A stretch of 32,000 bases of DNA from contig SUPR01000002.1 of the NCBI GenBank assembly GCA_005191425.1, forward strand, positions 1 to 32,000, written 5' to 3'. This document shows positions 11,199 to 13,386 of this stretch, in pieces. The translations under genes and the position numbers were made by a program. How positions within the stretch are numbered: position 1 is the stretch's first letter; every line of letters starts with the position of its first letter. The notes under the pieces are model-generated. The model saw only the letters and a program-made list of their open reading frames with translations. It was not told the origin of the DNA and made no database searches. Origin of the DNA: Candidatus Helarchaeota ASGARD archaeon Hel_GB_B. GTDB lineage: Archaea; Asgardarchaeota; Lokiarchaeia; Helarchaeales; HEL-GB-B.

Positions 11199-13007
11199 TT
11201 ATTTTGGGATTATTTCGTTAAAAGGTTTTACAATGAACTCGCAAATAGGATCACCTTTATTTATACATTTTACCTCTTTACAAATTACTTTTTCATTAGT
11301 TATACATTCAAATATCCCTGCAATAAGACCAGCAGTTAAGTGGTCAACTATTTCACCGGATTTGTTTTTAACCGAGCCTATGATTGTATTTTCTACAAAT
11401 AGATGAGCTCTTTTTCTCTCAGGAGAAAAGTATTCCAGATGGAACGAGCCCCAGCCTTTAGAATTTGCTATTTTTGCCCAAAAATTAAAAATTGCCTCTC
11501 CTTCTAATTTTAACTTTTTAGACACATAATTTCCGAATTGAATTGCCATTTGTCTTCCTAAATTATATTGAATTTCACTGGACTGCTTTTTATCAGTTAA
11601 TTTTTCTATACTATCAATTATTAGCCTTAAATTTTCATCAGAAATCAAAAATGAACGGGACATTTCAATATTTATTATACCGTTTTTATCTATTCTTAAA
11701 TTATTTTTTAATAAATTGGATTCATAAATTAATGGCTTTAATTTTTCTGCTGGAGTTGCTATAAAATCACAATATTTACTATAACCTATTGCATTACACT
11801 TGATTTCAATACAATCCCATTGATCTTTAGTAAACAGCTCGAGACATGATGTAATAAGTCCTGCCACTACGCTATGAATTGGTTTATTGGTTTCCCAACG
11901 CGCCAAATTATGGACTCTTACCTGTAATATGCCCCGTCGGAGCTCCATTTTCAATACTTCGACCTTTCCAATTCCAAATGAATTTAATATGTTAATCAGG
12001 TCAGCAGGAGTAAATTGAGTGCGAGTTCGTATTATATTTGAAAAAAATGGATATAATTGTTTTCCTGCAAGTTTACCAGCTTTATATAGAGTTTCATTAT
12101 AAGTTAAATAATCTGTACTTTCAAATAATTTCTTTAATATTTTTGTATACATTATTTTTGGAAGTACTAAAAACTCAGAACCAAACAATTTGATAATACC
12201 ATCTTTAGAGATCGACATGTACTTTTTTATTGTTTCGAAATCTTCTAAAACTTCAGTTTTTAGTGATATACCTTTGTGAGTTAGGATATACGGGACTTCG
12301 GCAGAAATAATATCTGATCCGAACCCTCGGTTTTTAATTACCCTAAGATGAGGTATTAACGAATCGCCTATTTCTTTAACATTCAGGCTAATTATTGCGC
12401 CTGCCAAGTCTTCTAACGCAGTCATCAATTGTACAGAGTGGGCCCGGCGCTCGATATAAAATAATCCTAAATCACCTGTTTTTCTAAGAAAGTGGAAGAT
12501 ATCCCGAACAAATTTAAGTACCTTATTCTCATCTCCAACTGTAACGATCATACTGGTGATGTCATCAAAAATCCATCTGGCATTAACACCTTCTGGAATA
12601 TGTTCTCTTCGCAATCGTTCTATTTCATAACGCACTTTTGATAGGTCATGCGGACTACTCATCGTCTGAATTGATTCTTTGAACTTAAATTCTGGTGGAA
12701 ATTCTACTTTACCATAACAATTTAAAATAATATACCTCTTTTTCTTTGTTATCTCTTGGAAAAACGAAGGTGATGTCAAAAAGTCAGGTAATTGATAGAA
12801 CTGATGAGGTGGATATAAATATTCAATAACAAAAACCTTTCCTCTATCTTTTAATAATTGTTCTAGAGCAAAATAACCCATAAATGCCGTTTTTCGCGTG
12901 CTAGGATGTTCCGAAATTATTAAAATTGCACAACCCGGAGATAACCCACCACCTAAAAGTTTATCTAAACTCGCTAGCCCAAAAGGAATTACTGATCGTT
13001 TAATCAT
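11199..13007 (-). CDS. KaiC/RAD55-like RecA-fold ATPase domain fused to two V4R domains
   Basis: N-terminal G..LDKLLGGGL, degenerate Walker A (SEHPSTRKT), Walker B (WIFDD), LRVIKNRG. These are followed by two repeats ending E-x-KC-x3-G-x3/4-C-x-F (EIKCNAIGYSKYCDF; EVKCINKGDPICEF). Confidence 0.82.
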   Translation of the reverse strand: MIKRSVIPFGLASLDKLLGGGLSPGCAILIISEHPSTRKTAFMGYFALEQLLKDRGKVFVIEYLYPPHQFYQLPDFLTSPSFFQEITKKKRYIILNCYGKVEFPPEFKFKESIQTMSSPHDLSKVRYEIERLRREHIPEGVNARWIFDDITSMIVTVGDENKVLKFVRDIFHFLRKTGDLGLFYIERRAHSVQLMTALEDLAGAIISLNVKEIGDSLIPHLRVIKNRGFGSDIISAEVPYILTHKGISLKTEVLEDFETIKKYMSISKDGIIKLFGSEFLVLPKIMYTKILKKLFESTDYLTYNETLYKAGKLAGKQLYPFFSNIIRTRTQFTPADLINILNSFGIGKVEVLKMELRRGILQVRVHNLARWETNKPIHSVVAGLITSCLELFTKDQWDCIEIKCNAIGYSKYCDFIATPAEKLKPLIYESNLLKNNLRIDKNGIINIEMSRSFLISDENLRLIIDSIEKLTDKKQSSEIQYNLGRQMAIQFGNYVSKKLKLEGEAIFNFWAKIANSKGWGSFHLEYFSPERKRAHLFVENTIIGSVKNKSGEIVDHLTAGLIAGIFECITNEKVICKEVKCINKGDPICEFIVKPFNEIIPK

Positions 13008-13255
13008 TTTTAATACGTCATTGGAGAGTTGTTATAAAATAAAATAATATTTTATATTATTACAATTATAATATTGACCTTAATTTTTAATCATTATGAG
13101 AAAAAGGGAGAAATTTGAATTTTTAATTTGAGTAAAATTATTAAGTAAATAAGAGTTGGACTTATGATTTTTTGAAAGAATTTATTTGTTAATATTTGAA
13201 ATTAACAAATTAAGTAATATGGGCTCGCTGGGACTTGAACCCAGGAGCTCCCGCG

Positions 13256-13282
13256 TTCCGTACATTTAACCGATATAAAATA
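13256..13282 (-). other. tRNA intron 2 (27 nt, canonical 37/38)
   Basis: Positions 32-35 (CCGG) pair with intron ACGG (3 of 4 bp). Bulges are GGT and AAC. Removal restores a 7-nt anticodon loop. Confidence 0.72.
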
Positions 13283-13305
13283 CCCCGGGCGGGAATCATA
13301 ATCCA

Positions 13306-13342
13306 TTCTAGCTTATATAGAATTAATCTATATTATGAAAGG
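13306..13342 (-). other. tRNA intron 1 (37 nt, D-loop, position 17/17a)
   Basis: BHB-like junction: central helix CTAG/CTAG (exon 12-15 with intron), 3-nt bulges CAC and AAT, outer helix CTT/AAG, internal hairpin ATATAGA/TCTATAT. Confidence 0.8.
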
Positions 13343-13386
13343 TGCTAGACCACGAGCCCAAGTTTAGATTTTATCGTAGACTAATT

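Follow-up and report, generated by a model that had tools for sequence, protein, structure and literature searches.

A tRNA-Pro(GGG) gene with two introns and C33

The window, i.e., the whole 32,000-nucleotide stretch of DNA analyzed here, comes from a Helarchaeales genome (G000) of 3.5 Mb and 28% G+C that is 93.7% complete; the six further genomes of the order that we compared are called G001 to G006. On its minus strand, the window carries a tRNA-Pro(GGG) gene flanked by a KaiC/V4R-domain gene and an amino-acid-kinase-family gene. Its parts are as follows:

13220..13359, minus strand: tRNA-Pro(GGG) gene with two BHB introns, 140 nt, 76 nt when spliced
13343..13359, minus strand: exon 1, tRNA positions 1-17, boundary as in the syntenic ortholog in G001
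13306..13342, minus strand: intron 1 of 37 nt, following A17 in the D-loop, with a BHB geometry judged by eye and a counterpart at this place in G001
13283..13305, minus strand: exon 2, from the 3' side of the D-arm to G37
13293-13289, minus strand: 5' strand of the anticodon stem, part of exon 2
13288, minus strand: C32
13287, minus strand: C33 replacing U33, same loop in G002, G003, G004, and G006
13284..13286, minus strand: anticodon GGG (Pro), register fixed by intronless orthologs
13283, minus strand: G37
13256..13282, minus strand: intron 2, 27 nt, at the canonical 37/38 position
13258..13261, minus strand: intron strand of the BHB central helix, with G13258-C32, G13259-C33, C13260-G34, and an A13261 x G35 mismatch
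13220..13255, minus strand: exon 3, C38 to A73

The unspliced gene was missed by both ARAGORN and Rfam when the window was searched, because it holds two introns, and ARAGORN at low threshold returned only noise. The spliced 76-mer was recognized by ARAGORN as tRNA-Pro(ggg), with a complete cloverleaf, the GGG anticodon, G37, and perfect acceptor, anticodon, and T stems. The discriminator base is A73 (13220), and CCA is not encoded. Intron 1 has a strict BHB motif by eye and intron 2 a relaxed one with three of four central pairs (probability about 0.75); in the G001 ortholog both motifs are strict. A sigma-70 promoter scan stayed at chance level, this model being unsuited to archaea. Directly downstream of the tRNA, at 11199-13007 on the minus strand, lies the gene for a 602-aa KaiC-like ATPase with two fused V4R domains, which is syntenic in G001.

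After splicing, the anticodon loop reads CC-GGG-GC, with C in place of the expected U at position 33. As the preliminary description of this locus had stated, this C does not depend on the choice of splice sites: all eight single-intron excisions that give a 7-nt loop retain it, and C stands at 13287 in every register. The same description had suggested looking for a second Pro(GGG) copy; none was found in G000, which leaves a single gene. U33 is kept in all 29 further tRNA genes of G000 that are legible, 24 of them scored by script and five by eye. The tRNA-Pro(CGG) gene at G000:C141:20729-20890 apparently contains three introns (anticodon loop, variable region, and T-loop) and has U33, and G000:C181:2826-2990 is a two-intron tRNA gene with a UAU anticodon (Ile). 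A second, intronless tRNA-Asp(GUC) gene at G000:C49:6463-6537 looks bacterial by eye and is possibly a contamination, the archaeal one lying on C46. No tRNA-Pro(UGG) gene was found in the G000 genome although CCA accounts for 47% of its Pro codons; this gene is probably unassembled or heavily interrupted.

Both states of base 33 occur within the order

C33 is present in five of the seven genomes of the order (G000, G002, G003, G004, and G006), U33 in the other two (G001 and G005). Both states are found within two families, and the order would need at least two changes at base 33. Outside the order, the class Lokiarchaeia was sampled with 36 Pro(GGG) genes, and all of them have U33. The loose phylum-wide pattern gave mostly chance matches, and the counts therefore use inspected hits only; the matches L028, L029, and L054 were dropped as not being tRNAs. 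Comparison with related genomes, as proposed in the preliminary description, revealed that C33 is shared by relatives but is not tied to the intron, since the C33 genes of G002, G003, G004, and G006 have no anticodon intron.

The C at 13287 appears to be real and not an assembly error, with support that is indirect. The identical loop in four other genomes of the order supports a real C33, and the change of the intron partner together with base 33, relative to the ortholog, argues against an assembly error. This ortholog is that of G001, which belongs to the same genus; it is syntenic, with both flanking genes conserved and both introns at the same places. The C33 genes of G002 and G004 are also present in separately assembled metagenome contigs (L227 and L194), and the metagenome scan contained no near-identical copy of the G000 gene. 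Three Pro tRNA genes of relatives, L024 (G002:C45), L075 (G002:C129), and L130 (G006:C10), carry inserts at or inside the 5' strand of the acceptor stem, and upstream of L024 the first bases of the gene recur as a short direct repeat.

Predicted dependence of the intron on C33

In the BHB register, the central helix of intron 2 contains the pairs C32-G, C33-G, and G34-C and a G35.A mismatch, the geometry that the earlier account had described. Folding in silico gave the central helix a pair probability of 0.72-0.76 with C33 versus 0.06-0.07 with U33, in agreement with the claim that C33-G stabilizes the splice helix of this gene. For the G001 ortholog, the corresponding values are 0.55 with U33 versus 0.0 with C33 (anticodon arm, central-helix pairs). 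U33 faces an intron A in G001 and C33 an intron G in G000, i.e., the intron partner base tracks base 33.

The further idea that C33 is present for the sake of splicing did not withstand the comparison. An anticodon intron is missing from four of the order's five C33 copies and from 53 found elsewhere, and C33 was seen in just one of 19 distinct intron-bearing Pro(GGG) arms among the loci fetched, namely in this gene. C33 and an anticodon intron thus do not go together, and a link between C33 and splicing is not supported. In U33 Pro(GGG) arms, the intron base opposite U33 is A or G; of the intron-bearing U33 arms, three share the mismatch G35.A, and two contain two wobble pairs each. None of those examined joins U33.G with G35.A, which fits the earlier suggestion that this intron now depends on C33. 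Such a dependence results from C33; it did not give rise to it. By the same folding, editing of C33 to U33 before splicing would break the intron-2 helix.

Search for an editing enzyme

Nothing we found supports the proposal that C33 is edited to U after splicing: no enzyme came to light, and C33 is confined to one of about 30 tRNA genes of G000. Neither a CDAT8-like nor an orphan cytidine deaminase was found in G000 by family, motif, and phmmer searches. PF00383 and PF14437 had no match in G000, G003, and G004, a credible zinc-deaminase motif was found in none of the 6,608 open frames of G000, and phmmer with the deaminases of relatives gave no match in this genome. CDAT8 consists of a cytidine-deaminase domain fused to THUMP; the two THUMP proteins of G000 are ThiI and a stand-alone THUMP, and no protein with a zinc cytidine-deaminase domain was found in this genome, which at 93.7% completeness could have an editor gene missing or split. 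The tRNA genes of G000 also do not carry C at this position in their majority, as would be expected with a CDAT8-type enzyme. An RluA domain fused to an editing domain, the TrcP-type arrangement, was likewise not found, the RluA-family domain (PF00849) having no match in the C33 genomes G000, G003, G004, G400, and G402.

Within the order, PF00383 does not track C33. It is present in G002 and G006 (C33) and in G005 (U33), and it was found neither in G000, G003, and G004 (C33) nor in G001 (U33), nor in the Atabeyarchaeia chromosome with C33 (G402). S. acidocaldarius, used as a control, is absent from the genomes with the PF00383/PF14437 deaminase families. Two long frames of 754 and 1006 aa (L244 and L245) in G002 and G005 contain a deaminase-fold domain that resembles the RibD type by eye; one of these genomes has C33 (G002), the other U33 (G005).

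C33 in tRNA genes of other archaea

One scan of a species-representative genome collection yielded 54 loop-intronless C33 Pro(GGG) matches, 53 of them with a perfect anticodon stem; since the pattern was narrow (no G38, a fixed variable loop, and no intron), these counts are lower bounds. The loop is CC-GGG-GC in 52 of the 53 genes and UC-GGG-GA in one. According to the record titles, the matches come from Bathyarchaeia (20, one of them a degenerate copy), Nanoarchaeota-type DPANN (12), Nitrososphaeria (11), Methanosarcinales (four, by label only), and Asgard archaea (three). Two matches lie in bacterial MAGs, L185 and L164, labelled Deferrimicrobium and Spirochaetales; their Pro(GGG) genes do not differ from the archaeal ones of G002 and L159 and probably stem from bin contamination.

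C33 Pro(GGG) is a minority state, found in three of the 48 Bathyarchaeia genomes and one of the 82 Nitrososphaeria genomes that gave a match, and each of these counts includes the genome chosen for having C33. Candidatus Bathyarchaeum tardum is among the organisms whose Pro(GGG) has C33. The loop CU-GGG-GC that the preliminary description gave for TACK archaea is indeed the majority state, but CC-GGG-GC recurs there as a minority. Candidatus Nitrososphaera FF02 has C33 in Pro(GGG) only; its Pro(UGG) and Pro(CGG) have U33. No C33 was seen among the many CU-GGG-GG genes sampled from Lokiarchaeia and Nitrososphaeria.

Other isoacceptors of other archaea have C33 as well, namely Gly(UCC/CCC), Arg(UCU), Val(GAC), Ala(GGC), Thr(CGU), Glu(UUC), and initiator Met. 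Manual counts among the matches listed gave at least about 50 Gly(UCC/CCC) and at least 18 Arg(UCU) genes with C33 for 301 Thermoproteota genomes, and at least eight Val(GAC), four Pro(GGG), and four initiator-type Met genes for 251 Nanoarchaeota genomes; 40 of these genes were verified whole, and C33 genes are related, so that the counts do not equal independent events. Many pattern matches in the two phyla were intron ends and not anticodon loops, and two that read as Phe AAA were discarded. Several lineages of Thermoproteota (L249-L275) frequently have C33 in their Gly(UCC), Gly(CCC), and Arg(UCU) genes, with up to three such genes per genome. The Val(GAC) loop is UC-GAC-AY in the Nanoarchaeota L292, L295, L298, L299, and L304, and UC-GAC-GC at G404:C2:4212. 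Four Nanoarchaeota (L279, L280, L283, and L305) have initiator-type tRNA-Met(CAU) genes with C33, like eukaryotic initiators.

Discussion

The tRNA-Pro(GGG) described here is very probably functional, with a C33 that stays unedited. The preliminary description had listed a functional C33 tRNA among its alternatives, and the distribution of C33, the intronless C33 copies, and the searches in which no editor was found now make it the best-supported reading. The gene would be expressed, the splicing endonuclease would cut both BHB motifs, the ends would be ligated, and the mature tRNA would keep C33 and read CCC, probably CCU too. With somewhat less confidence, we regard C33 as probably a tolerated, nearly neutral alternative to U33 in a working single-copy tRNA-Pro(GGG). 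Base 33 would flip near-neutrally between C and U in archaeal lineages, and a strong codon-anticodon pairing might make C33 easiest to tolerate. A C at this position would lose the bond between N3 of U33 and the phosphate in the U-turn and keep the contact between O2' of ribose 33 and N7 of purine 35, which is independent of the base; the all-G-C pairing of GGG with CCC, which ranks with the strongest between codon and anticodon, could together with this contact offset the loss. The contact between O2' of U33 and N7 of R35 has been described, and tRNAs for strong codons are said there to be 'tuned down' (PMC5041475). The intron would be carried along, its pairing strand having come to fit the base in the exon, with U-A in G001 and C-G in G000. 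Selection on tRNA-Pro(GGG) may also be weak because CCC makes up only 10.5% of Pro codons in the long open frames of G000. Some observations count against this reading: U33C impairs yeast tRNA-Gln in vivo (PMC3664417), the minority status of C33 in Bathyarchaeia and Nitrososphaeria does not favor near-neutrality, and its occurrence in Arg(UCU), Glu(UUC), and Thr(CGU) speaks against a pure rule of pairing strength.

A C33 that is equally functional and unedited but maintained by selection seems unlikely to us. Selection might act by tuning down an over-strong GGG, altering +1 slippage at CCC-N, blocking 2'-O-methylation of C32, or evading anticodon nucleases. The loop common to 52 of the 53 C33 Pro(GGG) genes would fit a selected state, as would the lack of C33 among CU-GGG-GG genes; however, the scan pattern excluded G38, the 52 genes are related and not independent events, and in sister taxa (G001, G005, and most Bathyarchaeia) this loop context goes with U33. 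U33C abolishes the methylation of C32 by archaeal TrmJ in vitro (PMC4105751), but TrmJ does not track C33, being found in G003 (C33) and G005 (U33) and not found in G000, G001, and G002. The sequencing error or gene decay that the preliminary description had considered is very improbable. The mismatch and the weak outer helix of intron 2 would agree with decay, but four further genomes of the order and the metagenome contigs L194 and L227 share this loop, C33 has its complement in the intron, no stem is disrupted, and the gene is syntenic with that of G001 and the only Pro(GGG) gene found in its genome. We give hardly any credence to another splice register that would place a GGA (Ser) anticodon on a Pro body. 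Five of the eight arithmetic excisions give GGA, but the BHB fits the 37/38 cut only, intronless orthologs read CC-GGG-GC, the long variable arm is absent, a separate Ser(GGA) gene lies on C99, and C33 would remain in any case.

Deamination of C33 to U33 after splicing is doubtful, and we rank it below selection. It would mean that genomic C33 in archaeal Pro(GGG), Gly, Arg, Val, and Cys tRNAs is repaired by a deaminase other than the CDA and TrcP types, acting post-splicing in the present case. To our knowledge, no enzyme has yet been assigned to the archaeal deamination of m1A57 to m1I57, and the G000 MAG is incomplete, both of which leave room for such an enzyme. U33 is near-invariant (PMC5041475), and C-to-U editing of tRNA exists in archaea in the form of CDAT8 (PMC3695527). 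In Vibrio, position 32 is edited by TrcP, whose deaminase domain initially went unrecognized (PMC9553926); an editor can thus escape family searches. On the other hand, domain, motif, and phmmer searches of G000 found no candidate, and an editor should relax many tRNAs, as in 30 of 34 genes of M. kandleri, and not one of about 30. The isoacceptor with C33 also varies from lineage to lineage, so that many independent editors would be required. Moreover, M. kandleri edits before intron removal (PMC3695527), an order of events in which U33 would break the helix of this intron.

An unedited C33 in tRNA-Pro(GGG) has counterparts among known tRNAs. The tRNA-Cys(GCA) of Sulfolobales has C33 (Wolff et al., 2020, PMC7668247). 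It too is an archaeal elongator with a genomic C33 and a G34 anticodon, is clade-wide, and, like Pro(GGG), is known from genes alone; it is another isoacceptor in another lineage, whereas C33 in Pro(GGG) is polymorphic within the order and recurs across several phyla. Eukaryotic initiator tRNAs also carry C33 (PMC9023262, PMC5041475, PMC11122139) and are natural cases of C33 in a working tRNA, as we presume for Pro(GGG); unlike the initiator tRNA-Met, which enters the P site, tRNA-Pro(GGG) is an elongator and must decode in the A site. Of the editing systems, CDAT8 of Methanopyrus kandleri converts C8 to U8 in 30 of 34 genes, as shown in RNA and before intron removal (PMC3695527). The shared feature is a genomic C at a nearly-always-U position of an archaeal tRNA; there, however, a dedicated deaminase serves 30 of 34 genes, whereas here no such enzyme was found and one of about 30 genes, read at the level of DNA, is affected. 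TrcP edits C32 of Vibrio cholerae tRNA-Tyr to U/pseudouridine (PMC9553926), again one tRNA only, whose C lies in the 5' part of the anticodon loop, but at position 32, in a bacterium, and with an RluA-fused enzyme, a domain family not found in the five C33 genomes searched. As for the gene structure, multi-intron Asgard tRNA genes with D-arm and anticodon BHB introns that standard finders miss have been reported (bioRxiv 10.64898/2026.10.13.758758), in a study whose main text does not mention C33/U33.

Natural C33 tRNAs are therefore known, and what is new, among the literature searched, is the recurrent C33 of the CC-GGG-GC loop in archaeal Pro(GGG), a variant on which we found no paper there. 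In reviews, C33 is given as an exception found in eukaryotic initiators, and the sole archaeal case that we found in print is the Sulfolobales Cys(GCA); the OTTR-seq papers on archaeal tRNAs (PMC13520502, PMC12247713) do not mention position 33 in the text and supplement searched. Our surveys show that C33 recurs in archaeal elongators, including a stereotyped CC-GGG-GC Pro(GGG) loop across several phyla. The interest lies in this breadth across archaea and is modest for the gene described here. Sister genomes that differ at base 33 provide natural pairs for studying the U-turn uridine, A-site decoding, and frame maintenance at CCC. As a place to seek an editor, the Thermoproteota genomes L249-L275 are better suited.
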